Source: a virus (Duplodnaviria > Heunggongvirae > Uroviricota > Caudoviricetes). Taken from it: a stretch of DNA of 64,000 nucleotides. Of this stretch, positions 37,449 through 62,444 are shown piece after piece. Each line of letters starts with the position of its first letter. Within the stretch, counting starts at the first letter, position 1. Where the stretch lies: the IMG/VR virus record IMGVR_UViG_3300009709_000002, positions 296,228 through 360,227 of that record; one strand, given 5' to 3'. The notes under the pieces are model-generated. The model was not told the DNA's origin. It did no database searches and saw only the letters and a list, made by a program, of their open reading frames with translations. The position numbers and the translations under genes are program-made.

Positions 37449-37457
37449 GGTAGCTCC

Positions 37458-37853: not shown

Positions 37854-37874
37854 CTTGAAGAACTGTTTTGTTGA

Positions 37875-37904
37875 CGTTAGAGTAATTATAACATCAACGG
37901 TTGA
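37875..37904 (-). promoter_or_regulatory. early-type promoter (ATTTAC...TATAAT)
   Basis: Motif match. Confidence 0.45.
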
Positions 37905-37921
37905 AGAAGTAAATGGCTTTC

Positions 37922-38218
37922 TTACTTCTTCAACACGACGTCGGTCGGATCCATGCCAGCAGCCATCGCCTTGGCGTACGCGTCGCCGTAGGAAGTTGCT
38001 TGAACTACACCAGCCTTGCGCTCAGAGCCGTCGGTGTCAGTCATGTAAACTTGCCAGTCTTTCTCCACCAGCTCAGTTTTGGCTTCTTCAACCAGGAGAG
38101 CGAGCATTTCATGAGTGAGAAAAACTTCGTTGCCAACAGCCGATTGAAGCAAAATACCAGCGTCGGTGATTTCGGCTTTGCGAAGGCCAGACTGTGCAAG
38201 CTGAAATTTCGTAATCAT
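37922..38218 (-). CDS. hypothetical protein
   Basis: AAGGAGTAAAGC RBS plus early promoter. Confidence 0.6.
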   Translation of the reverse strand: MITKFQLAQSGLRKAEITDAGILLQSAVGNEVFLTHEMLALLVEEAKTELVEKDWQVYMTDTDGSERKAGVVQATSYGDAYAKAMAAGMDPTDVVLKK

Positions 38219-38245
38219 GCTTTACTCCTTGGTTGACGTTAGAGT

Positions 38246-38276
38246 CATTATAACATCAACCGATGAAGAAGTAAAC
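38246..38276 (-). promoter_or_regulatory. T4-early-type promoter
   Basis: GTTTACttcttcatcggttgaTGtTATAATgactc then AAGGAGTAAAGC ATG. Confidence 0.65.
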
Positions 38277-38277
38277 A

Positions 38278-38640
38278 CTATTGAGGAGGCTTCACGATAA
38301 ACCAGCGCTCGAATGGTTTTTCTTCTAGCTCGCATGGTTCATAGTGCGGATCATGCACGATCTCATCTTTGATACAGACAACTGCATGATGAACTGGCGA
38401 ACCTATGAACCTCTTGCCGATCGCGATGTGTGGGAAACAACAGTAGAAAGAGTTGACAGCTTTGTAGGGAACGCAGATGAGAGTGTAACCACGAGCTTCC
38501 AGGAATTCTACAAACTTCTGTTTGTAGTCTTTTCCATATTGATGAGTGAAGCTGGGTACATCTTCAAGAGGTAGATCTAAAATCGTACAAACGCATGCAC
38601 GAAGACAGTCATAGGGATTGGGTTGAGTGACGGGTGTCAT
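38278..38640 (-). CDS. hypothetical protein (Cys/His-rich; possible cysteine-peptidase-like)
   Basis: Conserved C...H spacing only. Confidence 0.3.
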   Translation of the reverse strand: MTPVTQPNPYDCLRACVCTILDLPLEDVPSFTHQYGKDYKQKFVEFLEARGYTLICVPYKAVNSFYCCFPHIAIGKRFIGSPVHHAVVCIKDEIVHDPHYEPCELEEKPFERWFIVKPPQ

Positions 38641-38651
38641 ATCAGATATGA

Positions 38652-38741
38652 TGGCGCTGTGAGGTGGACTCGAACCACCTAACTCCCTCGGAACGCCTGC
38701 CCAGATTCCATTGAGGAGCTTTACCGCCTAAGCTACACAGC
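38652..38741 (-). tRNA. type-II tRNA (Ser or Leu; anticodon unresolved)
   Basis: 90 nt; T-arm ggtgg-ttcgagt-ccacc, CCA, long variable arm. Confidence 0.55.
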
Positions 38742-38746
38742 ATTGA

Positions 38747-38822
38747 TGGTCCCACCGAGAGGAATCGAACCCCTATTCCAGGTTTAGAAGACCCGTGTCT
38801 TAATCCGTTAGACGACGGTGAG
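38747..38822 (-). tRNA. tRNA-Arg (UCU)
   Basis: D-arm gtct-aacggatta-agac; loop ctTCTaa; CCA. Confidence 0.7.
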
Positions 38823-38834
38823 ATGATGTATTTA

Positions 38835-39221
38835 TCAGGATGATTTTTCGTACGCTTTGCACCGATCGATGCGTTCTTGCGTCCATCCTAGCAGCTTAAA
38901 AGCTTCATCGGCTAGCAAGTTGCAGTATTCATCGCTTGGCCAGTAAAAGCCTTGCGTCAGATGATTCTCAACCATGTGGCCGTGATGATGCATCAAGTCA
39001 CAGGTGTTGCAGAGAATATCATAGTCGATCGCGGCGTCTAGCTCATCTGCAATGAATTGTGCTATGGCGTAGAGCCTTGATCTCTTTGGGTTCATAACAA
39101 ATGGTCTTGTATGATTTCCCTTCGATTCATTGTTCTTCAGCCAAGCATACCGCTCGGCGTAGTCAGCTTTTTGCTGATCGGTGGCTTCATACGTGCCAGG
39201 GACTTTGAAATCCAGGATCAT
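38835..39221 (-). CDS. hypothetical protein
   Basis: ORF track. Confidence 0.45.
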   Translation of the reverse strand: MILDFKVPGTYEATDQQKADYAERYAWLKNNESKGNHTRPFVMNPKRSRLYAIAQFIADELDAAIDYDILCNTCDLMHHHGHMVENHLTQGFYWPSDEYCNLLADEAFKLLGWTQERIDRCKAYEKSS

Positions 39222-39481
39222 GATTGTTCAACTGGAAACAAAATAGCCGATTGTACGCTCACCTTCTCCGCAGTAGCGTGGTTCCACTCGATCGGGTCGC
39301 CGTACAAGAAATTACGGCGACGGATGACACGAAGCGTGATCCCCTTTGCTGTTTCTTTGATCGCTTCGCCTACAACAGTAGTTGCAAAGCCGCTCTTTTG
39401 ATTCGAATAGCCGTAGTGCTTATTCAAGAGCACTGGATTACCAAGAGCATCGAATTTTGAAGTAGTTACAAGATCACTCAT
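39218..39481 (-). CDS. hypothetical small protein
   Basis: ORF overlapping neighbour stop. Confidence 0.45.
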   Translation of the reverse strand: MSDLVTTSKFDALGNPVLLNKHYGYSNQKSGFATTVVGEAIKETAKGITLRVIRRRNFLYGDPIEWNHATAEKVSVQSAILFPVEQS

Positions 39482-39538
39482 ATCATTTACTCCAGTAGGC
39501 GATATGAAGATTGTATCCTATCGAGGCCTCAAAGTAAA

Positions 39539-40171
39539 TTAAAGCTTGGCCCAGTCCTCAAACCCAGCTTCTATCAATTCAGTTTGACAATCCACCAAAC
39601 TTCTATCAGCTTTGAGGTGCTTCTGGATTATCATAAGCACCTTTTCAAATGCTCTGTCTACGTCACTGAGCGGTTGTGATTGGTACCTAACTTTCTCTAA
39701 ACGCGGAACTTTTAATAGCTCAAGCACACCGATCGGCTTCTTCATCGATATGCCATCACCACGCATAAAGAAGGATTTCATAGTCTTGAATTCCTTGATA
39801 CCTTTGAGCGTGCTTACGTGGCTAGCTCTACCATCAACAAAGTAGCTTGAGAAGATTGAGGGAATCTTAGACCAGTCAGTGATGTCAAAATTCATGTACA
39901 AGTAGCTAGGATCTTCAACTACATTCTTGCTAGACCACACGTCATTTGAGAACTTAGGCTGTTCTTTCATCTTCATGGCCATCAGCTTCTCACCGCGGCT
40001 ATCATGGAACGTTATCTTATTGTCGCTGAATGAAAACTCAGTGCTAACGTATTCGTCTACGTATCTTGTGCCACCATTATGTGAGTCACCCATAATTTCT
40101 GTCACGTTCGCATCAATCCATTTTTCAAGAGGATTTTCGATTCTTGCTTCAATCAGGTCTTTTAGTTTCAT
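39539..40171 (-). CDS. Family-A paralog (dispersed copy)
   Basis: C-term CQTELIEAGFEDWAKL. Confidence 0.8.
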   Translation of the reverse strand: MKLKDLIEARIENPLEKWIDANVTEIMGDSHNGGTRYVDEYVSTEFSFSDNKITFHDSRGEKLMAMKMKEQPKFSNDVWSSKNVVEDPSYLYMNFDITDWSKIPSIFSSYFVDGRASHVSTLKGIKEFKTMKSFFMRGDGISMKKPIGVLELLKVPRLEKVRYQSQPLSDVDRAFEKVLMIIQKHLKADRSLVDCQTELIEAGFEDWAKL

Positions 40172-40180
40172 GTTTATCCT

Positions 40181-40256
40181 TGGGTCCGTCCATCCAGAAT
40201 CGAACTGGAGTCTAATCGCTCGGAACGACTTGTACTTTCCACTGTACTATGGACGA
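40181..40256 (-). tRNA. tRNA-Arg (CCG)
   Basis: D-arm gtac-agtggaaa-gtac; loop ttCCGag; T-arm tccag-ttcgatt-ctgga. Confidence 0.65.
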
Positions 40257-48555: not shown

Positions 48556-49227
48556 TTAGTGAAAAAGATCAAATTTACCGCTTTTGAGGATCAAGTCAGC
48601 AGAGACCTGCATGTCTGACCGATGATCTTTTACCACACCATGCTGTAACGCATAAGTGCGGATCTTTTCACCACGATTGCCGTTGCCGATTTGCGCCGCA
48701 CGAACATCAGCTGCCTTGCCGCTCACTTTCGAGTGCTCTAAAGCTGTGATCCTAGCTTCGAGCTGTTTCCAAGCTTCATCATAGCTATTCTCACGTGACC
48801 GCTGCTGCGAGGTCGCAATGATGCCTGTCGCTTTGTGTGTCAGCCTGCATGAGTTTTGATGCTTGTTGCGGTGCTGTCCACCTGCGCCAGTCCCGGAGTA
48901 CCACTCAACTTTGACATCTGCCTCATTGAGCTTGAACTCTAGCTTTACTTCGGTAGTGATTGCAACTGTGACGAGCGAGGTATGAACTCTGCCCTTCCGT
49001 TCAGTAGGCGGCACTCGTTGGAACTGGTGGCCGCCTGCTTCACTGTCTAGGAAGGTAAGGTCGGTTCCTTTAACTTCAAGGACCGTTTCGCCTACTCGAT
49101 TGACGGTGCTGACGAGGAGTCAGCCCTTGCGGAGGATCAGCTTGGTGTAAGCCTTGGCCAAATCTGCTACGAGTAGCTTGGAATCATCACCACCTTCAGC
49201 GGCGCGAATTTCGATGTAACGTTTCAT
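48556..49227 (-). CDS. prfA-like: class-I peptide chain release factor, RF1-type, lacking domain 1; in-frame TGA at 49120-49122
   Basis: GGQ motif (SGTGAGGQHRNK), RF1-type PxT tripeptide (RVPPTE) and RF C-terminal IRTY..DHR; frame verified continuous across TGA; the TGA aligns with the conserved Trp of RF1 (..EARRWRVEIM). Confidence 0.65.
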
Positions 49228-49443: not shown

Positions 49444-50076
49444 TCAGTGCTTTCTGGTATAGACAAGCAGTACGAACTTCTTCAGCTTGTCCTCTTCAGC
49501 CCAGATCTCATCATCTGGGAGATTCTTGCCATCATAGTAGAACGGCTCATCACCGTCCATCTTCAGGTGGCCATGATCCAAGATCATGACTACCTCGTTA
49601 CTCGCGTGGCTACGAGCAATCTTCTTCCATAGCTCAGCACCGCCCTTGAACTGCTTGGTGTCTGAGATGATGGTGTATCCTTTGCTCACCAGTGAATGGT
49701 AGAGGAACGTTCCAAGACCTGCAAACTTGGTCTGCTTAGCGACCTGCACGAGATCAACTTGAAGAACGTTCGGCGAAAACTCACGACGTTCTTCGGTACC
49801 AAGCTGTAAGCTCAGCTTAAACAGCAGCTGGCCAATAACCTGCACACCATCTTCGCCATCATGGCGCTGACCACGAGTGCCGATAATAGCGGTGTCGTGA
49901 TCATCATCTAGGTAAACTTCAACGTTATCTTGCTTGCCCATCAACCTGTACTTGCGTTCTTCAAGCGCCTTGTTGGTCATGAAGTAGACGCTGAACGGCT
50001 CCGCATCTGGATCATCATCCATCTCACGGTTAGAGAGCATCGGCATTTCTGTAAGTAGTAGTTCATCTAGTCTCAT
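49444..50076 (-). CDS. hypothetical protein
   Basis: ORF track. Confidence 0.5.
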   Translation of the reverse strand: MRLDELLLTEMPMLSNREMDDDPDAEPFSVYFMTNKALEERKYRLMGKQDNVEVYLDDDHDTAIIGTRGQRHDGEDGVQVIGQLLFKLSLQLGTEERREFSPNVLQVDLVQVAKQTKFAGLGTFLYHSLVSKGYTIISDTKQFKGGAELWKKIARSHASNEVVMILDHGHLKMDGDEPFYYDGKNLPDDEIWAEEDKLKKFVLLVYTRKH

Positions 50077-50159
50077 CGGTACCTCCTAATGAGAACTATT
50101 TATTGGTTGGCAAAAGACCATCTTACTGTCATTGTATACCAACTCTACTACGTTGTACA

Positions 50160-50792
50160 TCAAAGAATTGCAAACTCATCAAGGTTTGCGTCAATCAGTT
50201 CATTCTGGCATTCAAGAATATCTCTGTCATCTTCATACACATACTTCTTTACTATTCTAAGCGCAACAAATTGATCTTCTTTTGAACCATTATCACATAC
50301 AATGAATTTCAGTTTTGGCGCTTTTAGTAAACTCAACAATCCACATTCTATCTTTATGTCATTAGAAAAATTTAATTGCTGAATTTTAGAAGATGGCTCC
50401 AATTTTAGTGATTTAATTTTGGCTCTCTTAAATTCTATTTGCAAGAAATCAATATTTAAATTACAAAGTAATTTAGCATCATCTATGATACAATTTTCAT
50501 ATCTAATGCCATTACCATGCTCTTCTAAAATATTAAGCCATACGTCATCTGGTACTGGACATTTTGTGATTGCTTTATCTTTGAAATTGAAAAATATTTT
50601 CCAGTATGAAAATTTATCATTATTTTTAGAATTATATGCTTTTACCAGCAAATCATATACTTCATCACCATCAAACTTTTTAAAGTTCATATGTGACTGA
50701 TCAACTGACAATATAACGTGATCTTTAAACCATTGTTTAGTCGATGGAGAATTCCACGCTATTTTTGATTTTGAAATTTCATGTAGTTTCAT
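50160..50792 (-). CDS. Family-A paralog (AT-rich copy)
   Basis: C-term CQNELIDANLDEFAIL. Confidence 0.75.
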   Translation of the reverse strand: MKLHEISKSKIAWNSPSTKQWFKDHVILSVDQSHMNFKKFDGDEVYDLLVKAYNSKNNDKFSYWKIFFNFKDKAITKCPVPDDVWLNILEEHGNGIRYENCIIDDAKLLCNLNIDFLQIEFKRAKIKSLKLEPSSKIQQLNFSNDIKIECGLLSLLKAPKLKFIVCDNGSKEDQFVALRIVKKYVYEDDRDILECQNELIDANLDEFAIL

Positions 50793-51400
50793 AGCTTTGC
50801 GTACTCATCAAGATTTGCATCAATCAGTTCATTCTGGCATTCAAGAATATCTCGGTCGTCTTTCAACAAGTGCTTGTTGATGATTTGAAGCGCTAATTGC
50901 AAGTCTTTCGGGCATGAAGCTGTGCCACCTACTCGGCCAATCGTTTTGCACTTCAAAATACCAAGCAATCCACACTTAACTTTCGGAAAATCTAGTGTTA
51001 GATTATCAATGCCTCCATCTAGCGAACCAAGCTTAAATGTATGAAACTCGCATCGATCCAAGATAAGCAGCTGAGCTATCGGCATTTTATCCCACGTGTC
51101 AATAACTGCACCGATTATGCGCAAACTTTCAAGCCGATTGTTACCTTGCGGCCAAGCTTTAGAATCAAATGGAATTGAGCTGATAGTTTCTTGGTGCATT
51201 ACCAGACAAGCTTTATTGATGTTCTCAATCTCTACCTTGCCATTTTCATATTTGAAAGTTACTCCACGCTCTTTCTCATACGAGATGTCATTACCATCTA
51301 CTTTCTCAGCGGTGCGTGAATCAAGGCCCCAATGCAAGGCGTGCTTTACCCACTCATCACCTACGTTATCTGATTCTTGCAGATATTGTTTGAATTTCAT
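50789..51400 (-). CDS. Family-A paralog
   Basis: C-term CQNELIDANLDEYAKL. Confidence 0.8.
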   Translation of the reverse strand: MKFKQYLQESDNVGDEWVKHALHWGLDSRTAEKVDGNDISYEKERGVTFKYENGKVEIENINKACLVMHQETISSIPFDSKAWPQGNNRLESLRIIGAVIDTWDKMPIAQLLILDRCEFHTFKLGSLDGGIDNLTLDFPKVKCGLLGILKCKTIGRVGGTASCPKDLQLALQIINKHLLKDDRDILECQNELIDANLDEYAKL

Positions 51401-52023
51401 ACCTTAGCCCACTTTTCAAACCCAGCGTCAATTAAATCTGATTGACATTCAATAATGTCTTTGCCTTCTTTGAGGTGTTTATTGACAATCTCAAATGCTT
51501 TCTCTACGTCATTATCAGCTTCATTAAAGCCATGAACGGTCTTGATGTTTTCTGTCTTCATTAGATTAAGAAGACCACACTTGATCTTTACATCTTCAAA
51601 ATTTAGAGAGTTCGTATTGACTGACGGTGGAAACTTAACAGACTCAACCACAGCACCGTTCAAATAAAGCCTAAGAAGTTTTGCTGGTGTGAAAAGCTTC
51701 TTAGGATCTTTCAAAATCCCATTGAAAACTGTTTGATGCTTGACTTGATCGCCAAACACAGCTGTCCAAAGATCTACTGAGAAATCCGGTGGCATTGAAT
51801 ATTCTTCATCCGTTTCATGATAGAATTCCAGAAAGAGCTTACACGGTCCAGAGTTTTCAGGCACGCCTTTATTTAGCGCAGTGCAAATAGCTTCACCAGT
51901 ATAAAGCGGCGTTGATCCATCATTAAATGAGCCAACGTTCACGATAATTGCATGCTTCATGAACCAATCTTCGGCTTTTGGTGATAATGCCCGTTTTGGT
52001 TTTGTTATCTCTGTTAGTTTCAT
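51397..52023 (-). CDS. Family-A paralog
   Basis: C-term CQSDLIDAGFEKWAKV. Confidence 0.8.
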   Translation of the reverse strand: MKLTEITKPKRALSPKAEDWFMKHAIIVNVGSFNDGSTPLYTGEAICTALNKGVPENSGPCKLFLEFYHETDEEYSMPPDFSVDLWTAVFGDQVKHQTVFNGILKDPKKLFTPAKLLRLYLNGAVVESVKFPPSVNTNSLNFEDVKIKCGLLNLMKTENIKTVHGFNEADNDVEKAFEIVNKHLKEGKDIIECQSDLIDAGFEKWAKV

Positions 52024-52479: not shown

Positions 52480-52506
52480 GACAAACCCAGCGAATATGCT
52501 GGGTTT
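52480..52506. terminator. bidirectional hairpin (aaacccagc-gaatat-gctgggttt flanked by A/T runs) at the 3' end of the tRNA cluster
   Basis: 9-bp stem with T-tract on both strands. Confidence 0.45.
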
Positions 52507-52583
52507 TGGTACACGGTGTCAGACTCGAACTGACATACTCAATCTTGTAAGGATTGTGGACTAACCTCTCTCACCAACCGTGC
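52507..52583 (-). tRNA. tRNA, anticodon loop ctTACaa (Val-UAC-like), atypical D-arm
   Basis: Acceptor gcacggt/accgtgt plus CCA; T-arm gtcag-ttcgagt-ctgac. Confidence 0.5.
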
Positions 52584-52585
52584 GG

Positions 52586-52658
52586 TACCTGGTGACGGGA
52601 TCGAACCGCCGACAATCGCCTTGTAAGGGCGGTGCTCTACCAGCTGAGCTAACCAGGC
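52586..52658 (-). tRNA. tRNA-Val (UAC); no encoded CCA; 2 nt from previous tRNA
   Basis: Canonical D-arm tagctcagctggtagagc; loop ctTACaa. Confidence 0.7.
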
Positions 52659-52664
52659 ATCATA

Positions 52665-52889
52665 TCATTCAACTTCACTGTCACTCGGAAACTCAGGCGT
52701 CTGAGGAGTCGGTGACGTGTAGATGAACTCGACTAAATTCGTCGAAGTTTCACTATAGAACAAAGTCAAGCTGGGATCGAGTGTTGGTGGTTCTGTCACC
52801 GTCGGATCATACCCAACATAATAAACTTGCACTCCGGTAGCAGTGAGATTATCAAGCTGCTGCTTTTGTGCCAGTGTGAAATTGTTCAT
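52665..52889 (-). CDS. hypothetical small protein inside the tRNA cluster
   Basis: GGAGTAAGTT RBS inside a conserved hairpin. Confidence 0.45.
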   Translation of the reverse strand: MNNFTLAQKQQLDNLTATGVQVYYVGYDPTVTEPPTLDPSLTLFYSETSTNLVEFIYTSPTPQTPEFPSDSEVE

Positions 52890-52921
52890 AACTTACTCCA
52901 TTTGATGGAGTATTTATTACT

Positions 52922-52997
52922 TGGCCCCTTGGAGTGGATTTGAACCACCGACAGGAGATGTTCAGTCTCCTACTCTACCAGGCTGAGTTACCGCGGG
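52922..52997 (-). tRNA. tRNA-Phe (GAA)-like
   Basis: Loop ctGAAca; T-loop ttcaaat; CCA; acceptor has 2 mismatches. Confidence 0.5.
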
Positions 52998-53052
52998 ATT
53001 GTAGCACCTGACATAGATTATAGAGGATATCAGGTGACAACGTCTCCTCTTT

Positions 53053-53128
53053 TGGCTCCCCAGGCTGGGCTCGAACCAACGACCATTGCATTAACAGTGC
53101 AACGCTCTACCAACTGAGCTACTGGGGA
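53053..53128 (-). tRNA. tRNA-Asn (GUU)
   Basis: Perfect acceptor tccccag/ctgggga plus gCCA; loop ctGTTaa. Confidence 0.8.
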
Positions 53129-53255
53129 ATTGACTGGTTTCTACGCATTTAAAAGTATCGTAAGGGCTTATCCAGACAGCCTCAACATTAATAGTGAATT
53201 GCAACCAATAAAGCCTACCCCGCAAGGCAGACTACCGTCATCGTCTTATCATCAC

Positions 53256-53331
53256 TGGTGCCCCTTGTCTGATTCGAACAGACCACCTACGCATTACAAG
53301 TGCGTTGCTCTACCAAATGAGCTAAAGGGGC
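53256..53331 (-). tRNA. tRNA-Thr (UGU)
   Basis: Acceptor gcccctt/aaggggc plus aCCA; loop ctTGTaa. Confidence 0.8.
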
Positions 53332-53405
53332 AATGACGTTAGAGTTAAAAGCAATCTGAGTGATTTTTCTATGCGCGAAGTAACTCAGATCTACGCAACT
53401 AACGA

Positions 53406-53480
53406 TGGAGCCCTGCCACGGAATCGAACCGTGTTCGCTGGATTACAAAACCAGTATAATAACCAATATACGAGAAGGGC
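53406..53480 (-). tRNA. tRNA, Thr(UGU)-like loop ttTGTaa, noncanonical D-arm
   Basis: T-arm acgg-ttcgatt-ccgt; CCA. Confidence 0.5.
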
Positions 53481-53523
53481 ATTAAAGGCAGAGATAAAGT
53501 CGAAAAGTGTTTAAGCCTCTTGC

Positions 53524-53600
53524 GAGGTTCGATGGACTTGAACCATCCTTATCGCCAAGATTATTAGTCCCGCGAATTTACCCGATGTAACACTTCACTA
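53524..53600 (-). tRNA. tRNA-like element (perfect T-arm gatgg-ttcaagt-ccatc, no clear acceptor)
   Basis: Partial structure only. Confidence 0.25.
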
Positions 53601-53610
53601 CGCAACTACC

Positions 53611-53685
53611 TGGTGCCCTAGTACGGAATCGAACCGCATTTTCTTGATTACGAAACAAGTGTAATAGCCAGTATACTACAAGGGC
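53611..53685 (-). tRNA. tRNA, loop ttCGTaa (Thr-CGU-like), noncanonical D-arm
   Basis: Acceptor gcccttg/ctagggc plus aCCA. Confidence 0.5.
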
Positions 53686-53689
53686 AATC

Positions 53690-53896
53690 TTAATCTTCAC
53701 CGGGCTTCTTCAATGTGAAGCCCTTATCAATCGCGATACTTTCCAACAGTGCGCAGATAACTTTCATTGCACCAAGCGGACCAGATCCTTTCGGATAGTA
53801 AGCGAGATAATACTCTTGCAACTGTTCTTCTGTGTCGAACTGGCCTACAAAATCAGGCAGAAAACGAGGAAAAGAACGTTCAATTTTCTTTTTCAT
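53690..53896 (-). CDS. hypothetical small protein inside the tRNA cluster
   Basis: ORF track. Confidence 0.4.
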   Translation of the reverse strand: MKKKIERSFPRFLPDFVGQFDTEEQLQEYYLAYYPKGSGPLGAMKVICALLESIAIDKGFTLKKPGED

Positions 53897-53956
53897 GATT
53901 TACTCCAAGTTGTAGATGGTACTATTCTATCATCATTTCATCTCAAAGTAAATTAG

Positions 53957-54030
53957 TGGTCAAGGATAACGGAATCGAACCGTTGACTCTTCGCTCCAAA
54001 GGAAGTATGTTACCATTACATCAATCCAAG
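53957..54030 (-). tRNA. tRNA-Pro (UGG)-like
   Basis: D-arm atgt-aatggtaa-acat; loop ttTGGag; CCA. Confidence 0.5.
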
Positions 54031-54112
54031 ATAGACACAGAGTTAAAGTCGACGTGAGCTGTTGTAAGCAAATGGAAGATTAGCGATGAAACTCACTTCT
54101 ACGCAACTGTGT

Positions 54113-54186
54113 TGGTCACCGTGGCTGGAATCGGACCAGCGATTCGACCATCCGAGGGTCGTATGTTACCACTACATTACACGGGG
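54113..54186 (-). tRNA. tRNA-Pro (CGG)
   Basis: D-arm atgt-agtggtaa-acat; stem cgacc/ggtcg; loop ctCGGat; CCA. Confidence 0.65.
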
Positions 54187-54579
54187 ATTGCTGAATCTAC
54201 GGATAGGTTCCCTCTGTTCCGGGAGTCGTATTTATCGTAGCCTTCAACTTACAAACTTGAGAATGGTTTGTTCAACCAAGCTTGGTATTCACCAGGCTTC
54301 CATTCTTTGGCTTTACACTCTTCATCAAATTTCTTCAGACGTTCATTCAATCTTTTGAAATCTTCTTCAGTAGGTTCAAACTTCTTTGCTGCTTCAATCA
54401 ATTCACAAACTGTCATAGATCTAAGTCCGAGATTGGATCTTCAGCTTTACCGCTACCCCAACATCTACTACATGCTCTTGGATCGCAGTTAACTAATTCT
54501 TCATAAGTTGGCTCATACTGATCGCCAGGCTCATAACCAGAACCTTCACATCGTTCACACTTATCAACTTTATTCATGA

Positions 54580-54653
54580 TGGCAGGCCACCAGGGAATCG
54601 AACCCCGGTCCGCAGTTTTGGAGACTGTTATGTTACCACTACACTAGTGACCC
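54580..54653 (-). tRNA. tRNA-Trp (CCA)
   Basis: Loop ctCCAaa; T-arm cgggg-ttcgatt-ccctg; gCCA. Confidence 0.75.
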
Positions 54654-54788
54654 GTTGTACTTCAATGATAGCAGCTAGATCCACTTTAACAGTGTTGCCC
54701 GGGACGTGCTGATCTGACCCAACTACTATTATTGAAGTTGCTGGTTACAAGTTCCAGCGATGCCTCTATCTTTGGCCCTGATTTTCTA

Positions 54789-55016
54789 CTACGCGTTAAC
54801 GGCTGGGAAGTCGCCGCCAACGTTATCTGCTTCATCCTGTCCGTCATAGCCGCATGTTGCACATGAAACATCATCGGACGGATTTACATCTGTCGGCATC
54901 GGAGCACCACAGTTAGCACAGATTTCATCACCGTCATTATTGAACGAATCTCTGTTCAACATGCGCCGCTGATCTTTTGCCGACTGAAGAGGAGTCATTA
55001 ACTCTTTAAGCTTCAT
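54789..55016 (-). CDS. small zinc-ribbon protein (CxxC..CxxC), paralog of 55026..55226
   Basis: MKLKELMTPLQSAKD...CANCG...CATCGYDG. Confidence 0.5.
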   Translation of the reverse strand: MKLKELMTPLQSAKDQRRMLNRDSFNNDGDEICANCGAPMPTDVNPSDDVSCATCGYDGQDEADNVGGDFPAVNA

Positions 55017-55025
55017 GATTCATCC

Positions 55026-55226
55026 TCAAGGATTCGGTGCGGCATAATCGCCTGCCACATCTTCCGAACCCGGTTCTCCATCATATCCACACTCAGTACA
55101 TGCACCTTCATCATCCATCGTATCTTGACCACATTGTGGACAAGGTCCGGTTTGTTCATCTCGAGAAAGCATGCGATAACGATCTTTCGTCGATTGAAGC
55201 GGAATATTCAGCTCATGTAACTTCAT
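55026..55226 (-). CDS. small zinc-ribbon protein, paralog of 54789..55016
   Basis: MKLHELNIPLQSTKD...CPQCG...CTECGYDG. Confidence 0.5.
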   Translation of the reverse strand: MKLHELNIPLQSTKDRYRMLSRDEQTGPCPQCGQDTMDDEGACTECGYDGEPGSEDVAGDYAAPNP

Positions 55227-55240
55227 GTTTCATCCTTAGT

Positions 55241-55315
55241 TGGCGGTCCGTAAGGGGATCGAACCCTCATGTCCGGATAGACAGTCCAGCATAATGACCA
55301 TTATATGAACGAACC
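55241..55315 (-). tRNA. tRNA-Asp (GUC)-like
   Basis: Loop ctGTCta; acceptor ggttcgt/acggacc; CCA. Confidence 0.5.
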
Positions 55316-55346
55316 AGCGATGAAACTATTTATACAACTCAAAACT

Positions 55347-55420
55347 TGGTGGGTCTGCCTGGAATTGAACCAGGAATCTCCGGCGGCAATCGCGCAGTGT
55401 GTTGCTTACACTACAGACCC
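55347..55420 (-). tRNA. tRNA, anticodon unresolved (atypical loop cgATTgc)
   Basis: Perfect acceptor gggtctg/cagaccc plus aCCA; T-arm cctgg-ttcaatt-ccagg. Confidence 0.5.
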
Positions 55421-55583
55421 AAGGAATGATTGACGAGTCACTCGGATTTGCACCCAGGTTTCACGCTTTGCTCGCGTGCGTCCTTCTACTAGACGATAAC
55501 CCTCACTACTTTTCGCTGGTTGGCGCCAACTTTGCGTAGTGCAATCATAATTTTACATCCGTGCGCCAACACTTCAGTAAAAT

Positions 55584-55656
55584 TGGTGGAGCTGCCTGGA
55601 ATTGAACCAGGAATCTTCAGCCTAAGCGGCCGATGTGTTGCTTACACCACAACTCC
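55584..55656 (-). tRNA. tRNA, anticodon unresolved (loop cgCTTag); paralog of 55347..55420
   Basis: Same D and T arms as its neighbour; CCA. Confidence 0.5.
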
Positions 55657-55663
55657 AAAATAT

Positions 55664-55882
55664 TTAGTGAACTAACATCACCTGAACGACTGGTGTTTCT
55701 GAACCATCATTCTCTGTCCAGAAACGAATAGCGAAGCAATCTACTGCGTAAGCTTCACCACCGTCGATCGCTTCAACGAGTAGCTCTTTCTTCTGATCAA
55801 ACTGTTGAAGATGTTTGATAGCTTCTTCAACCGTCATTTTCTTCACCTTGTTGCTCACGAAGAATATCCATTGCGAAATCAT
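55664..55882 (-). CDS. hypothetical small protein
   Basis: ORF track. Confidence 0.4.
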   Translation of the reverse strand: MISQWIFFVSNKVKKMTVEEAIKHLQQFDQKKELLVEAIDGGEAYAVDCFAIRFWTENDGSETPVVQVMLVH

Positions 55883-56066
55883 AACCTGACCAGTTATCTA
55901 CACCAGCACATTCAAGCGCAGTGAGCTTTGCTGAATCTTCACAAAGACTGTTATACTCTTTCTTTGTGATAGTTACCATCTCTTCAGTTGGTGCAACCAT
56001 GTTGTTGTCCTCAGTTTGAATCAGTAAGAGGATTCTAAATCATTTCAACAACATCGTAAATTTATT

Positions 56067-56140
56067 TGGTAGTCCGTTACGGAATCGAACCGTCTTCATT
56101 CGCTAATCGGGCGAAGACCTTACCAATAGATGACCGGACC
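56067..56140 (-). tRNA. tRNA-Ile (GAU)-like
   Basis: Stem ttcgc/gcgaa; loop ccGATta; CCA. Confidence 0.5.
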
Positions 56141-56225
56141 ATTGTAGTACTAGAGTTAAAGTCGAAAAGAGAAATTTTACGTGCTCGGCCATTGAGCTAC
56201 AGCGCCATTAAATCAACTACAAGTT

Positions 56226-56300
56226 TGGCGACGCTGGCTGGGATTCGAACCCTGCATCCACGCGATTCGGAGTCGGAGTAACTCTTCTCTACGCAACTAA
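56226..56300 (-). ncRNA. tRNA 3'-half-like fragment (T-arm plus acceptor plus CCA, no 5' half found)
   Basis: cagggttcgaatccc...gtcgCCA with no complementary 5' acceptor. Confidence 0.3.
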
Positions 56301-56303
56301 TAC

Positions 56304-56378
56304 TGGCGCCGCGGAGGGGGAATGATCCCCTACTTCATCCGTGACAGGGATGCATGCAGACCACTACATCACCGCGGC
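56304..56378 (-). tRNA. tRNA-Asp (GUC)
   Basis: Perfect acceptor gccgcgg/ccgcggc plus gCCA; stem catcc/ggatg; loop ctGTCac. Confidence 0.75.
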
Positions 56379-56388
56379 AAAATAATTC

Positions 56389-56465
56389 TGGTCCCTGCGC
56401 TTGGACTCGAACCAAGGACCTATGCGTTATCAACACATTGCTCTAACCAGCTGAGCTACGCAGGG
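56389..56465 (-). tRNA. tRNA-Ile (GAU)
   Basis: Canonical D-arm tagctcagctggttagagc; loop ttGATaa; aCCA. Confidence 0.8.
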
Positions 56466-56744
56466 ATTTTATGAAGCACTCATACAATTCCGTCGTGTCA
56501 TCAGGGTGCGCTTCAAGTTACACCAATATGAATGAGATGATGAGTCCCTAACTGTTAACCAAGTCGACGTTGCATAATACTCATCGGAAATATGCAGGCC
56601 CATAGGCTCTGTTACAGCCCAGCCGAAGCCGGTAAAACTAGTAAGTTTCTGCTCCACGACCTGGGAACGATCCAGGCTAATCGTGATTAACAGTCACGCG
56701 GTTGCCACCAAGGCGCCTCTCGTGGAGCAGAAACTTCTAATCTT

Positions 56745-56819
56745 TGGTACCCGCAGTTGGTATCGAGCCAACCTCTGAGCCTTATCAAGACTCTGCTAAT
56801 CCGTCTCAGCTATACGGGC
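56745..56819 (-). tRNA. tRNA, loop ttGATaa (Ile-GAU-like), atypical D-arm
   Basis: T-arm gttgg-ctcgata-ccaac; aCCA. Confidence 0.5.
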
Positions 56820-56830
56820 ATTGTACTAAT

Positions 56831-56908
56831 TGGCTCCGGTTCAGGGAATCGAACCCCGCTCTATGCGCATTAACAGTGCGCCGCTTACACCTTGCTTGCT
56901 CAACCGGA
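56831..56908 (-). tRNA. tRNA-Asn (GUU)-like, atypical D-arm
   Basis: Perfect acceptor tccggtt/aaccgga plus gCCA; stem gcgca/tgcgc; loop ctGTTaa. Confidence 0.55.
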
Positions 56909-56975
56909 ATCGGTCGCCGAGAATTTTATACTTGATAGCTCGGCAGTCAAGTCGTGGCAGCTTCTACCACTGTTT

Positions 56976-57047
56976 TGGACCCACCGGACAGAGTCGAACT
57001 GTCTACATCTCGTTCGTAGCGAGTTGGCCTAATCCCTAGGCGGTGAG
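56976..57047 (-). tRNA. tRNA-Arg (ACG)
   Basis: Loop ctACGaa; T-arm gacag-ttcgact-ctgtc; tCCA. Confidence 0.6.
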
Positions 57048-57052
57048 ATACT

Positions 57053-57130
57053 TGGTGGGTGCGCTGGGATTCGAACCCAGGTCAGCCGGATTAAGAGTCC
57101 GGTATAATAAAGCCGCTATACGACACACCC
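57053..57130 (-). tRNA. tRNA-Lys (CUU)
   Basis: Stem ccgga/tccgg; loop ctCTTaa; aCCA. Confidence 0.6.
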
Positions 57131-57141
57131 AAAATAAAACT

Positions 57142-57215
57142 TGGTGGGACTGGAGGGTACTGGCCCCTCTTCTACGAGGTAAAAGCTCGTTGCTTCACTT
57201 TAAAGCTTCAATCCC
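57142..57215 (-). tRNA. tRNA-Lys (UUU), unusual T-loop
   Basis: D-arm gctt-taaagtg-aagc; stem acgag/ctcgt; loop ctTTTac; aCCA. Confidence 0.6.
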
Positions 57216-57226
57216 ATTCTACATCT

Positions 57227-57302
57227 TGGCGGGGGTGCTAGGTTTCGAACCTAATCCTAGTGAGTCAGAGTCACTCATGCAAACCAATTACACCTCACCC
57301 CT
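57227..57302 (-). tRNA. tRNA-Gln (CUG)
   Basis: Stem agtga/tcact; loop ctCTGac; gCCA. Confidence 0.55.
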
Positions 57303-57313
57303 ACTGTACTTCT

Positions 57314-57388
57314 TGGTAGTCCTCCAGGGAATCGAACCCTGTCACCTGCGGTCAAAGCGCAGTATCTGCTCCAATCGATTTGAGGACA
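57314..57388 (-). tRNA. tRNA-Gln (UUG)
   Basis: Stem ctgcg/cgcag; loop ctTTGac; T-arm caggg-ttcgatt-ccctg. Confidence 0.6.
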
Positions 57389-57390
57389 GG

Positions 57391-57462
57391 TGCCGCCGAT
57401 TGGTAACGATCCAACCTCTTGGGTGTTTCAAACCCACGCTAATCCATCTCAGCTACCGCGGC
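57391..57462 (-). tRNA. tRNA-Phe (GAA)-like; no encoded CCA; unusual T-loop
   Basis: Acceptor gccgcgg/cggcggc; stem tgggt/accca; loop ttGAAac. Confidence 0.5.
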
Positions 57463-57474
57463 ATCTATAAATCT

Positions 57475-57551
57475 TGGGGTGAATGAGGGGAATCGAACCC
57501 CCACCGAGATGTTCACAGCATCCCATGCAGAACCACTACACTACATCCACC
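57475..57551 (-). tRNA. tRNA-His (GUG) with encoded G-1
   Basis: Loop ctGTGaa; extra 5' G before acceptor gtggatg/cattcac; cCCA. Confidence 0.65.
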
Positions 57552-57586
57552 ATTGAAGTAGAGCCCGAAGACTCTACCTTGAAACT

Positions 57587-57901
57587 TTACACCTTGTCTG
57601 GATACTTTTCATCCAGCCAGTCGATATAAGCTAGAGGGCTCATACCTGGCTCACAGTTGTGAATCTTTGTGAAGCCATTTTCCTTTGTGATCAACGATTC
57701 AGTTCCTGGAACTGCACCGCGATATTTCTGTCCGTACTGGCCTTCAATTTGACCAGTTGCTGGATTTAAATCTCCCCAGAAAGCCTTCTTACCTGCGAGA
57801 GGTTCTACGAAATAAGTCTTACCAGTGCGCTGCGATACAACGATAAAGCGGCCGGTTTCATCTGTATTTGTGAGAAACCTTGCCCGTAGGTCGGGGTCCA
57901 T
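57587..57901 (-). CDS. hypothetical protein
   Basis: ORF track. Confidence 0.45.
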   Translation of the reverse strand: MDPDLRARFLTNTDETGRFIVVSQRTGKTYFVEPLAGKKAFWGDLNPATGQIEGQYGQKYRGAVPGTESLITKENGFTKIHNCEPGMSPLAYIDWLDEKYPDKV

Positions 57902-57929
57902 ATCAAGTCCTATTCAAGTTAAGTACAGC

Positions 57930-58005
57930 TGGTGCAGCCTCCCGGTTTCGATCCGGGCTTTCTACCTTTTCAGAGTAGCACTTTCACCAGATTAGTTTAG
58001 GCTGC
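57930..58005 (-). tRNA. tRNA-Phe (GAA)-like
   Basis: Perfect acceptor gcagcct/aggctgc plus aCCA; T-arm cccgg-atcgaaa-ccggg; loop ctGAAaa. Confidence 0.55.
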
Positions 58006-58024
58006 ATTCATTACATCTACTACT

Positions 58025-58099
58025 TGGCATCGATGAGGGGAGTCGAACCCCCGTTTCCAGATTGAAAGTCTAGCGTCCTAACCATTAGACGACATCGAT
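58025..58099 (-). tRNA. tRNA-Glu (UUC)
   Basis: Perfect acceptor atcgatg/catcgat plus gCCA; loop ctTTCaa. Confidence 0.7.
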
Positions 58100-58113
58100 A
58101 TTGTTAGACAATA

Positions 58114-58189
58114 TGGAGTCTCCAGCCGGGCTCGAACCGTGCATTCCAACCTTGAAAGGGTTGTGTCCTGACCTTTAGACGATGGAGAC
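58114..58189 (-). tRNA. tRNA-Glu (UUC), tandem duplicate
   Basis: Perfect acceptor gtctcca/tggagac; stem caacc/ggttg; loop ctTTCaa. Confidence 0.7.
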
Positions 58190-58221
58190 GTTGTAACTAA
58201 ATCCGGCCCCGGAAATCAATC

Positions 58222-58249
58222 AGGGGAACCATTTTAGTGGTTCCCCTGC
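58222..58249. terminator. 11-bp hairpin caggggaacca-ttttag-tggttcccctg at the upstream edge of the tRNA cluster
   Basis: Perfect inverted repeat. Confidence 0.35.
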
Positions 58250-61262: not shown

Positions 61263-62444
61263 TTAACCGTCGTCACGAAGCAAGAATGCTTCCATCGCAC
61301 GTTGGCACGCCGAAATTCTTGCAGCTTGCAAGAGAATACCAACATGAGGTCCTTGCTCACCAGGAGCTACTACATCAGCTGTTATCAGAGCCGCGATTTT
61401 TGCCGAATACAACACCAAATCTGATGTCATTTCAGGAACTTCGCCAAGCAATTCATACAGCAAGAGCGGATTCAGGTTAGTGAACCAGACCGGAGTGCGC
61501 CAGACGCCGATGAACTTCAACGTCTTGTGAAGACCGACAGCAGTCATGCCGTTCGCCAGCTCGTCACCGATGCTGATGAGCATGTTCGCATCATTGATCG
61601 CGCTGCTCTGCATCTTGATGTCGGCGAAATCAGCATTGCGATTGAACGCCGAGATCACCGCAAGCATACACGAAACAAACTCGGACTCCGACAGCTCATC
61701 TTCATGATCTTCGATAAGCTGAATCGAGTCGAAGATCATAGCAATCCGCGAGTATTTCATGTCACCAAGCCACTTCTTGAAGAAGCTCACGGTCCGCACG
61801 GCGTCGACCAAGAACAGCGTGTGGAAGAAATTCATCGGGTGCGGTTCAATGAACGCACGGGTGATTTCTTTCCAGTAGCGCTCGTGAGAAACTTCATCGA
61901 GCTCACCAGATTTGATGACTTCCTTGCAAAGCTCGATCGTGTCTGGTGCGATCGTGAAGTCGAATCTGGCAGCGAAACGTGCAAGCCGCAAGACACGCAG
62001 CGGATCTTCCGAGAAAGCTTCCGATGTGTGTCGCAAAATGCCGCTATGGAGATCATCTTCACCACCGAACGGGTCGATCAGTGTGGTCAAACCTTTGTTG
62101 GGAGCTGGGATGATCGTTCCATCTTGCTTCACGACGGAAACTTCATACGCCATCGCGTTGATAGTCAAGTCGCGGCGGCGCAGATCATCTTCAATCGTCA
62201 CGCTCGAGTCAAAAGCCGTCTCGAAGCCGTGATAGCCGACGCCGACCTTGCGTTCAACACGAGCCAACGCCCATTCATCGCCAGTTGTAGGGTGAAGGAA
62301 CACTGGGAAATCTGCACCAACCTGCTTGAAGCCGAAGCTCACCATTTCTTCAGGTGTCGAGCCGACAACGACATAGTCGACGTCTTTCGGCTTGCGGGAC
62401 AACAGCATGTCCCGCACAGCTCCACCAACAACATATACTTTCAT
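61263..62444 (-). CDS. cca: tRNA nucleotidyltransferase (CCA-adding enzyme), class II
   Basis: GGAVRDMLL...DVDYVV head motif and RRRDLTINA motif B. Confidence 0.8.
   Translation of the reverse strand: MKVYVVGGAVRDMLLSRKPKDVDYVVVGSTPEEMVSFGFKQVGADFPVFLHPTTGDEWALARVERKVGVGYHGFETAFDSSVTIEDDLRRRDLTINAMAYEVSVVKQDGTIIPAPNKGLTTLIDPFGGEDDLHSGILRHTSEAFSEDPLRVLRLARFAARFDFTIAPDTIELCKEVIKSGELDEVSHERYWKEITRAFIEPHPMNFFHTLFLVDAVRTVSFFKKWLGDMKYSRIAMIFDSIQLIEDHEDELSESEFVSCMLAVISAFNRNADFADIKMQSSAINDANMLISIGDELANGMTAVGLHKTLKFIGVWRTPVWFTNLNPLLLYELLGEVPEMTSDLVLYSAKIAALITADVVAPGEQGPHVGILLQAARISACQRAMEAFLLRDDG

Follow-up and report, generated by a model that had tools for sequence, protein, structure and literature searches.

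The stretch analyzed here, 64,000 nucleotides (nt) of the IMG/VR record IMGVR_UViG_3300009709_000002 (positions 296,228 to 360,227; the whole stretch is called the window below), comes from a large, uncultured phage and carries on its minus strand an array of about 30 transfer RNA (tRNA) genes and tRNA-like genes over 5.7 kb (52507-58189). Several anticodons in this array are present in two or three copies that are no more alike than the tRNAs of the cluster are in general. The most consistent oddity of these copies lies in the T-loop, not in the D arm: the usual U54 and A58 are replaced, most often by A54 and U58. The argument is carried by the genes themselves, the divergence of their copies, the covarying conservation of these copies in related phages, the anticodon-specific multiplicity and the swap at 54/58. 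We favor, with moderate confidence, the explanation that the array is a private adaptor pool in which copy number is weighted to the heaviest codon boxes read by a single tRNA and in which the copies for one anticodon differ in structure. The first-pass annotation of this DNA had pointed to repeated anticodons and unusual D arms and missed the swap at 54/58, the fact that relatives have multiple copies for the same anticodons, and four structured elements that lie between tRNAs.

On the minus strand ARAGORN finds 26 tRNAs from 52507 to 58189, and four further ones at 35.5-40.3 kb. A search of the whole window with Rfam places 23 of the 26 above the gathering score of RF00005 and adds a match to tRNA-Lys(UUU) (57145-57215), and a regional search adds 58117-58189, 56834-56908 and, at the borderline, 56070-56140 (28.6 bits). 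With both searches combined, nearly all 26 ARAGORN genes reach at least 29 bits on RF00005. At a low threshold ARAGORN also reports a tRNA-Arg(ACG) (56976-57044) and a 'Cys-GCA' tRNA-like gene with A33 (55432-55503). The earlier count of about 30 minus-strand tRNAs in 5.7 kb is borne out by these ARAGORN, Rfam and low-threshold calls taken together. No Rfam match was reported for the second of the tRNA-Asn(GUU) genes (AsnB), and tRNA-Gln(UUG) and tRNA-Arg(ACG) gave no RF00005 match; these three and an Ile-like gene with C33 were accepted because ARAGORN calls them, with covariation as an additional reason for AsnB and Arg-ACG. The array is flanked by two terminator-like hairpins on the same strand, one just upstream (58221-58248) and one directly after the last tRNA (52483-52506), and very small open reading frames (ORFs) are interspersed among its genes.

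Automated folding by ARAGORN leaves the apparent duplicates with shared anticodons, so that the repeats seen earlier are confirmed, with some adjustment of the counts. UAC, UGU, GUC and UUC each occur twice and GAA three times, as had been described; GUU occurs three times, not twice, and GAU, previously given as two or three, occurs twice with one further copy that has C33. Only 'CC' lies between the two UAC genes, in agreement with the 2-nt spacing reported. The description of the copies as tandem duplicates does not hold. In global alignments copies with the same anticodon have identities of 57-72%, the mean over all 435 tRNA pairs of the cluster being 61 ± 4.5%, and recent tandem duplication was rejected since these identities sit at the cluster background. 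The closest paralogues are two genes with G33 that are described below (84.5%), the second tRNA-Phe and the first tRNA-Ile (PheB/IleA, 79%), an anticodon switch on a single scaffold, and copy A of tRNA-Thr(UGU) with tRNA-Thr(CGU) (78%).

A pairing of one canonical with one atypical D arm had been proposed for most repeated anticodons. It is seen for Val, Thr(UGU), Ile, Asn and Phe, but in Glu and Asp both copies are of one style. On Rfam the canonical copies score 62-69 bits (46 for PheC), and the atypical ones 35-51 bits or not at all. All of the following genes are called by ARAGORN. For Val(UAC), copy A (52584-52658; 62.7 bits) is canonical and ends in CC only, and copy B (52507-52583; 42.8 bits) has an odd D arm. 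For Thr(UGU), copy A (53406-53480; 45.1 bits) has an A/U-rich D stem and copy B (53256-53331; 69.5 bits) is canonical. The first tRNA-Ile(GAU), IleA (56745-56819), has the T-loop CUCGAUA with C54, and IleB (56389-56465; 67.2 bits) is canonical. Among the tRNA-Asn(GUU) genes, AsnA (56831-56908; 35.2 bits) has an odd D arm, AsnB (56651-56726) has an A54:U58 T-loop, an interrupted D stem and no encoded CCA, and AsnC (53053-53128; 69.4 bits) is canonical. The tRNA-Phe(GAA) genes are PheA (57930-58005), which Rfam also matches and which combines an odd D arm with the T-loop AUCGAAA (A54/A58); PheB (57389-57462), with the T-loop AUCGUUA (A54:U58), the D arm GCUG-AGAUGGAU-UAGC and CC only at its end; and PheC (52922-52997; 46.4 bits), with a standard T-loop. 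For Asp(GUC), copy A (56304-56378; also an Rfam match) has the T-loop AUCAUUC (A54:U58) and copy B (55241-55315; 48.5 bits) a standard one. The two tRNA-Glu(UUC) genes, GluA (58114-58189; 47.7 bits) and GluB (58025-58099; 65.6 bits), complete the set.

A seven-base anticodon loop with U33 and a purine at position 37 is found in all of the duplicated Val, Thr, Asn, Phe, Asp and Glu tRNAs and in IleA and IleB; it is absent from 56067-56140 (C33, U37), from 55584-55656 and 55347-55420 (both G33) and from 55432-55503 (A33). The D-loop GG is present in most copies, and identity features are kept (G-1:C73 in His, an unpaired 1:72 in Gln and U73 in Cys). The encoded G-1 of tRNA-His, which had been reported, is present as G at 57551 opposite C73. 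An earlier statement that a single tRNA lacks an encoded CCA needs correction: three are incomplete, namely PheB and ValA, which end in CC and abut the next tRNA, and AsnB, which has a single C.

Related arrays were obtained through an ORF of 104 amino acids (aa) that lies inside the array (57587-57901, minus strand), has no Pfam domain and has about 390 homologues; the contigs of these homologues supplied many phage tRNA arrays, and many of the retrieved homologues are located within or close to such arrays in a variety of large phages from soil, rumen and human gut. The nearest relative retrieved in this metagenome scan is only 80% identical, and sister-phage sequence takes the form of three short contigs, L058, L141 and L142. 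Over the stretch 56379-55424, L141 is ~77% identical to the window. In a megablast search of a 6.1-kb region against 50,697 deposited phage genomes all matches were tRNA-sized and no close relative was found, and an IMG/VR search with the protein of a nearby cca-like gene returned one partial locus, L001, that ends before any array. The window is 100% identical over 13.2 kb to a Logan contig from SRR5829574, and other runs hold near-identical strains. One 695-aa window ORF is ~52% identical to proteins of phiCbK-like phages and of the jumbo phage RSL1.

In the related arrays PheB-, AsnB-, GluB- and His-type tRNAs recur with compensatory changes. The PheB lineage is found in the loci L067, L128 and L133, the AsnB lineage in L058, L113 and L139, and the GluB lineage also in L067 and L139. 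When the PheB lineage is aligned together with IleA, 99% of the alignment cells at paired positions are paired and 10 of 21 pairs have changed on both sides, with none of 500 shuffles as high; for the AsnB lineage the corresponding values are 100% and 7 of 22 pairs. Arg-ACG and Lys-UUU differ from L058 on both strands of several stems, and the L058 orthologue of PheA has compensatory changes in the anticodon stem. The orthologue of GluA in L058 is 94.5% identical. GluB (in L058), IleB (in L058 and, by direct sequence reading, in L141) and the Ile-like gene with C33 match sister-phage sequences exactly despite the ~77% identity of their surroundings, and AsnC belongs to a cluster of eight members from eight sources, the window included. 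The odd copies are old phage lineages that other metagenomic phages have conserved. Decay of the atypical copies is excluded because anticodon and covarying stems are conserved across phages.

One relative of the array is in culture. In the Ralstonia phage RsoM2USA (MG752970; L205 in our set), ARAGORN finds 15 tRNAs at ~83.4-87.2 kb, among them two tRNA-Phe, two tRNA-Asn and an IleA-type gene, and IleA itself has a 93% match over 56 nt in this phage. The 12-kb stretch retrieved has no annotated tRNA feature, only hypothetical proteins, and some of the annotated coding sequences overlap tRNAs. As a cultured relative with an unannotated array of the same features, RsoM2USA makes the ideas discussed here directly testable. 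Another related locus, the metagenomic L055, has 48 tRNAs in 10 kb and, inside its array (12595-13069), a permuted (two-piece) transfer-messenger RNA (tmRNA) with the tag ANDNVYAMAA.

The T-loop was compared in 632 distinct tRNAs of these loci. Positions 54 and 58 are U/A in 604 of them, A/U in 19, A/A in six, C/A in three and U/U in none. Since there are 19 cases of A/U and none of U/U, the two positions covary, and this suggests that the tertiary pair is retained in swapped form. U54 has been described as universally conserved, the eukaryotic initiator tRNA excepted (PMC7912444). In the window, PheB, AsnB and AspA have A54:U58, PheA has A54:A58 and IleA C54:A58, and each of these non-U54 copies has a partner with a standard T-loop. 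The T-loop of AsnB is AUCGUUC, compared with UUCGACC in its 93%-identical orthologue in L058, so that 54 and 58 have changed together. All 19 tRNAs with A54:U58 fall within seven anticodons (those of Phe, Asp, Ile, Lys-UUU, His, Asn and Glu), a restriction with a Fisher p of 2e-10 for a set that was defined after seeing where the 19 fall. These seven overlap heavily with the anticodons that are present in multiple copies.

Multiplicity was counted in 27 non-redundant related loci, each of which has 10 tRNAs or more. At least two copies are present for GAA (Phe) in 12 of 18 loci, UUC (Glu) in 10 of 15, GUC (Asp) in eight of 13, GUU (Asn) in eight of 14, GAU (Ile) in nine of 20, GUA (Tyr) in five of 11 and GUG in six of 23; CUG, GGU, CGU, UCC, CUC and UAG are never multi-copy in these 27 loci. 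Multiplicity is correlated with the decoding load per anticodon, taken from the codon usage of 44 window ORFs (Spearman 0.46, p = 0.006).

Why phages carry tRNAs is a fifty-year-old question that has been revived by the many tRNA-cleaving defense systems. Phage tRNAs rescue infection from such defenses (PMC12409363) and have been proposed to be nuclease-insensitive (PMC10264068). Examples of phage tRNAs that evade nucleases are those of van den Berg 2023 and the T5 tRNAs faced with PARIS. AriB of PARIS targets Lys-UUU, Thr-UGU, Asn-GUU and Thr-CGU and makes contact with the anticodon stem as well as the D loop (PMC12409363). In the explanation that we favor, the co-oriented array between its terminator-like hairpins would supply the phage's own adaptors, with most of the ~30 genes being working tRNAs. 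For Phe, Asn, Ile, Asp and Glu, where one anticodon serves an entire two-codon box in heavy use, two or three versions of ancient divergence would be kept, and in the window Val-UAC and Thr-UGU would be kept in diverged versions as well. One version would be bacterial in style, its D arm canonical and its T-loop U54:A58; the second would be phage in style, with an unusual D arm, in Phe, Asn, Asp and Ile a non-U54 T-loop that is most often A54:U58, and in some cases no encoded CCA. Host RNase P and 3' processing enzymes would cut the precursors, and a phage CCA-adding enzyme would complete the three genes that lack CCA or end in CC and could repair damaged tails. The presence of three genes without a full CCA fits the nearby cca-like gene (61263-62444, minus strand). 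The extra copies would raise supply where the decoding load is highest and, the bodies being different, an anticodon would not be lost to any one tRNA-directed nuclease, modification enzyme or recombination event. We infer that the tRNAs are expressed and charged and that they help to evade defenses; the connection to tRNA-directed defenses is a possible one, drawn from the literature and from the structural pattern.

The locus and its relatives amount to a natural experiment: for the same anticodon one genome carries a standard and an altered tRNA, and purifying selection acts on both. Among the altered tRNAs are some in which the elbow pair 54/58, elsewhere in life a nearly invariant one, is swapped, and recurrent loss of U33 also belongs to this class. 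Should the altered copies resist nucleases or escape modification, they would show which tRNA surfaces the defenses read and would provide resistant scaffolds. Several points weigh against the explanation that we favor. Between copies the anticodon loop is for the most part the same (Val, Asn, Glu, IleA/IleB), so the published form of evasion by anticodon-loop mutation cannot distinguish them, and evasion would have to use the body or the elbow of the tRNA; the published substitutions, in the anticodon loop or stem, are mostly not what separates the copies here. No defense specific for the 54/58 pair was identified in this analysis, and decoding load alone explains part of the multiplicity pattern. 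The related loci are partial contigs recruited via one shared ORF, neither independent nor complete, and the codon usage is drawn from this window only. Finally, the window lacks tRNAs for Leu, Ala, Gly, Ser, Tyr and Met, and the full tRNA set may extend beyond it.

In its general layout the array resembles those of big lytic phages, which also have dense co-oriented tRNAs, very small ORFs and a phage tRNA nucleotidyltransferase in the vicinity. XacN1 has been described with a high tRNA gene complement, and huge metagenomic phages are further examples. T5 has ~24 tRNAs and mycobacteriophages of cluster C1 ~33, and coverage of most amino acids has been proposed to free phage translation from depleted or cleaved host tRNAs (PMC10264068, PMC12409363, PMC6409571, PMC7824862). 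What differs from the known arrays is that, systematically and for particular anticodons, a standard copy is paired with one of deep divergence, an arrangement that many related phages have kept, and that a covarying A54:U58 class is restricted to the paired anticodons. The literature searched contains no description of such paired copies or of an A54:U58 class.

Dosage alone could also account for the extra copies, which would only boost the most-used tRNAs, with structural differences that have no function of their own and that arose because identical repeats are lost by recombination or because the copies were acquired independently. The correlation of multiplicity with load speaks for this, as does the fact that the most duplicated anticodons, GUC, GAU, GAA, GUU and UUC, are among the seven with the highest loads. 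However, Gly-GCC (4.65% of the load) is duplicated in two of 14 loci and Lys-CUU (4.64%) in three of 18, and Val-GAC and Leu-GAG (3.6%) are never duplicated; since these anticodons of similar load have few duplications or none, demand can account for some of the pattern but not for all of it. Two low-load anticodons, Val-UAC and Thr-UGU, are nevertheless duplicated in the window. In addition, A54:U58 is confined to duplicated anticodons and changes in concert between close relatives, which points to selection on structure. Dosage without any role for structure thus seems to us a serious but rather doubtful account.

It is improbable that the copies are a host-range kit, in which each version suits the synthetases, RNase P, modification enzymes or EF-Tu of a different host and only one works well in any given host: canonical and phage-style copies do coexist for an anticodon, their lineages are common to phages from different metagenomes and the identity features listed above are retained, but many divergent phages keep the same pairs, and this speaks for a need that arises within one infection.

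The first-pass annotation had offered a choice between divergent isoacceptors that are maintained and copies that are decoys or pseudo-tRNAs. Divergent copies are kept, and the atypical ones are not pseudo-tRNAs, given that other phages, too, have the PheB and AsnB lineages, with covarying stems. A decoy or mimic role is reasonable for the four genes without U33, two with G33, one with A33 and one with C33 and U37, that break the U33 rule. Loops without U33 had been noticed at 55347-55420 and 55584-55656, and both indeed have G33, in CGAUUGC and CGCUUAG, respectively. The G33 genes (both ARAGORN and Rfam matches; gene 1 at 55584-55656, gene 2 at 55347-55420) fold as cloverleaves with a 5-nt D loop that lacks GG, a normal T arm and CCA. 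In L141 the scaffold and G33 are kept, but the loop is CGUGCGC; decoding tRNAs do not evolve in this way, with a conserved scaffold and an 'anticodon' loop that is wholly different between sisters. The A33 gene (55432-55503, low-threshold ARAGORN) has the loop GAGCAAA, the non-standard T-loop UGCAAAU and no CCA, and the alignment, read directly, has its acceptor stem wholly replaced in L141 yet paired. We consider the two G33 genes and the A33 gene to be probably non-decoding mimics, and a decoy or protein-binding role for them is our own inference. Extended to all of the atypical copies, as molecules that soak up tRNA-binding defense proteins or as decaying duplicates, the same idea is very unlikely: it fits at most three or four genes and not the duplicated isoacceptors, whose loops are intact (U33, purine 37), whose four stems all covary and whose anticodons are conserved across phages in a way that excludes decay.

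Loss of U33 is unusually common in these phages (31 of 625 distinct tRNAs); C33 accounts for 25 of the 31 and is recurrent in Ile-GAU. The Ile-like gene of the window (56067-56140; Rfam 28.6 bits, low-threshold ARAGORN), with a GAU anticodon in the loop CCGAUUA, is of this type and is identical in L141 by direct comparison. Homologues of the G33 genes were found only in sister strains, and a search of the G33 genes, the spacers and the inter-tRNA elements described below against Rfam gave no ribozyme or other family above noise at E ≤ 5. A candidate permuted tmRNA at 55409-55611 (20.6 bits against a threshold of 47) was dropped for lack of G3:U70 and of a plausible tag frame. Between G33 gene 1 and the A33 gene there is a conserved spacer (55504-55583, minus strand) with a possible micro-ORF starting ATGATTGCA (MIALRKVGANQR...), whose first 12 codons differ from L141 by three synonymous changes only; alternatively, the spacer may be a hairpin (GUUGGCGCCAAC).

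The four structured elements between tRNAs, E1 (56148-56302), E2 (54035-54112), E3 (53486-53610) and E4 (53337-53404), all on the minus strand, were found by motif alone, and their orthologues in L141 by synteny. They have two motifs in common, AGUUGCGUAGA and (C)GACUUUAACUCU, and a common predicted base. A closing stem of 6-7 bp (P1), which differs in each copy, is followed by an asymmetric internal loop (5' UUGC opposite 3' UUUAACU), then by a helix GUAGN/NCGAY with a central A.G (GUAGA/UCGAC in E1), a stem P2 and a variable apical domain. In E2 and E4 the apical domain is a plain hairpin, with a degenerate 3' helix strand in E4, and in E3 it consists of a T-arm-like hairpin and a GCAA-capped stem. 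In E1 the apical domain reads, in order, as V region, T arm, acceptor 3' strand, G-CCA, a 19-nt linker, acceptor 5' strand and D arm, and hence, by its predicted fold, is a circularly permuted tRNA. The L141 orthologue of E1 has compensatory changes in P1 and in the 7-bp acceptor stem and conserves G-CCA; E3 has compensatory changes in P1, and E2 is nearly identical there.

A structural descriptor of the base matches exactly E1-E4 in the window, one copy in L067, two in L170 (an IMG/VR phage contig of 183 kb) and the sister-phage orthologues. It has no match in shuffled sequence and none among the other 107 IMG/VR pattern matches; two scans had given 47 and 61 matches, near a rough estimate of chance, and only L170 passed the descriptor. 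Across 11 copies, in an alignment that was hand-trimmed and for which some copies were selected using pairing criteria, 94.9% of cells are paired compared with 63.8% after shuffling, and 13 of 16 pairs have changed on both sides. A covariance model, R1, recovers its five searched copies of up to 118 nt, namely E2 (49.5 bits), the L141 orthologue of E2, E4 (44.7 bits), the L067 copy and one L170 copy (L170a). It misses copies with long apical inserts and found no new member in 746 kb, and it performed worse with the filters off. The L067 copy has a T arm only. In L170 (2341-3417, minus strand) at least four elements of the family can be recognized by eye among 34 tRNAs, and two or three of them carry permuted tRNA-like domains with D arms of the Glu or the Leu type, which suggests that the same basal scaffold has repeatedly captured different tRNAs. 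The E motifs were also considered as sigma-70 promoters, a reading that was rejected as the spacing of the hexamers is not conserved and a promoter scan stayed at background.

The closest known counterparts of these elements are bacterial Y RNAs, in particular YrlA (RF02553). E1 and YrlA share the module order of V region, T arm, closed acceptor-like stem and D arm, which is also found in the L141 orthologue of E1 and, read directly, in copies c and d of L170. In both, the module sits on a long helix formed by the two ends of the RNA and a short motif in the 5' strand is conserved. The alignment itself is weak: E1 scores 20.2 bits against a gathering score of 69, with only model positions 23-87, the tRNA-like part, aligned, and E2-E4 have no RF02553 match. 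YrlA of Mycobacterium smegmatis carries an acceptor stem of 7 bp, is cleaved by RNase P and has CCA added, YrlB has a T arm only, and other Y RNAs are plain hairpins (PMC4201824). E1 (7-bp stem, encoded G-CCA), E3 (T arm only) and E2 and E4 (hairpins) parallel this series. Like bacterial Y RNAs, the E elements have several copies per genome and a common precursor, which for the E elements is a prediction. There are also differences. The 5' motif of the E elements is UUGCGUAG or a close variant and not GNCGAAN0-1G, the presumed Ro60 contact of Y RNAs (PMC4201824; Chen et al. 2014), although four of the six fixed positions match in our own alignment. The E elements sit in a tRNA array, whereas YrlA lies next to an rsr (Ro60/TROVE) gene. 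No TROVE domain was found in 88 window ORFs or in 44 ORFs of L067, L170 and L001, whose genomes are incomplete; two of these, L067 and L170, carry E elements, and a distant or host rsr would lie beyond the sequence searched. By predicted structure the E elements are Y-RNA-like in design and are not members of YrlA.

E1 can also be compared with the permuted tRNA genes that Cyanidioschyzon merolae and some archaea possess (PMC3978253), in which the 3' half likewise lies upstream of the 5' half with a short linker between them. Unlike these, however, E1 can form no anticodon loop and has no bulge-helix-bulge junction; its 'anticodon stem' runs into the long P2/P1 helix that ends at the termini of the RNA and contains the conserved 4 x 7 internal loop. 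To our knowledge, bacteria lack the splicing endonuclease of the algal and archaeal permuted-tRNA pathway. Among phages, the tRNA cluster of T4 contains two stable small RNAs, species 1 and 2 (rnaC/rnaD), which resemble the E elements as structured non-tRNA RNAs among phage tRNA genes that are presumably released by tRNA processing. Compared by description only, the E elements differ from the T4 RNAs in that they make up a family of several copies whose basal motif is shared and whose apical domains vary.

The E elements are most likely separate structured RNAs that are released between the tRNAs and bind protein in the manner of Y RNAs. They might instead be sites for processing of the RNase III or RNase E type, or insulating hairpins that separate the pre-tRNAs. 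Their position exactly between tRNAs (0-7 nt separate their start from an upstream CCA, and 4-14 nt their end from the following tRNA) and their long interrupted helix with an asymmetric internal loop would suit such a role, but they occupy only four of the ~30 junctions in the window, a processing site has no need of conserved tRNA-like modules, covarying acceptor stems or the G-CCA of E1, and the invariant loop sequences suggest a specific binding partner. For these reasons we think that processing or insulation is an unlikely purpose. As Y-RNA-like molecules, the E elements would extend the tRNA-mimicking Y-like RNAs to phage tRNA operons, and E1 suggests a route from a tRNA gene to a Y-like RNA. 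A more far-reaching proposal, which we put forward tentatively and regard as rather unlikely, is that the A54:U58 tRNAs form a second, 'mirror-elbow' set of elongators for just the split-box anticodons that resists a defense or modification enzyme, and that the E elements are a new family of phage RNAs belonging to Y-RNA-like ribonucleoproteins, with RNase P cleaving the linker of E1 so that a two-piece CCA-bearing mimic results which, together with the G33 and A33 mimics, baits or regulates tRNA-binding host factors.

The remaining tRNA genes of the array are single for their anticodon. tRNA-His(GUG) (57475-57551; 53.1 bits), tRNA-Gln(CUG) (57227-57302; 45 bits), tRNA-Lys(CUU) (57053-57130; 57.2 bits), tRNA-Trp(CCA) (54580-54653; 55.6 bits), tRNA-Pro(CGG) (54113-54186; 52.9 bits), tRNA-Pro(UGG) (53957-54030; 44.3 bits) and tRNA-Thr(CGU) (53611-53685) are found by both ARAGORN and Rfam, and tRNA-Gln(UUG) (57314-57388), with an unpaired U1.U72, by ARAGORN only. 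tRNA-Lys(UUU) (57142-57215; 41.7 bits) is matched by Rfam and not called by ARAGORN. Its T-loop, GCCAGUA, has U55 replaced and its D loop lacks GG; its minimum-energy fold is nonetheless a cloverleaf (z = -3.8), and its orthologue in L058 has compensatory changes and the T-loop AUCGUUA. tRNA-Arg(ACG), about 70 nt long (56976-57046), has an unusual D stem that begins directly after the acceptor stem. Its compensatory changes relative to L058, in the T, anticodon and D stems, were read by eye and not counted by a tool. Outside the array, at 35500-40256 on the minus strand, lie tRNAs for Val-GAC, Cys-GCA, Arg-UCU and Arg-CCG, the last of which ends in CC only. The variable loop of Cys tRNAs is normally short. 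tRNA-Cys(GCA) of the window (36214-36300) is 87 nt long, with U73 and a 16-nt variable arm capped by GAAA, and comparably long Cys tRNAs are present in L055 (88 nt) and L170 (90 nt).

The cca gene that had been noted near the array is indeed there, ~3 kb upstream: the ORF at 61263-62444 has the PolyA_pol head domain (PF01743, 3.6e-18) and the RNA-binding domain (PF12627) expected of a CCA-adding enzyme, here a class II tRNA nucleotidyltransferase. A 152-aa protein (48556-49014, minus strand) with an RF-1 domain and a GGQ motif, similar to ArfB/peptidyl-tRNA hydrolase, suggests phage-encoded ribosome rescue. Two runs of tandem abutting ORFs of ~190-240 aa on the minus strand, one of 16 members (254-10229) and one of four (49444-52023), have a GC content of 0.37-0.43, below that of the rest of the window, and the two members searched (50160-50792 and 51397-52023) have no Pfam match. 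Within the array there are an ORF similar to the T7 Gp5.9 inhibitor of RecBCD (PF25708; 55827-56000, minus strand) and two small adjacent ORFs (54789-55016 and 55026-55226, minus strand) that appear to be paralogous, with similar N termini and Cys-rich segments resembling zinc ribbons. Upstream of tRNA-Trp, a non-coding element of ~115 nt (54660-54775, minus strand) without an Rfam match is ~95% identical to L141, compared with ~77% for the other aligned parts of the array. It forms a long stem (z = -3.5), and its few differences from L141 preserve pairing, with one pair changed on both sides.

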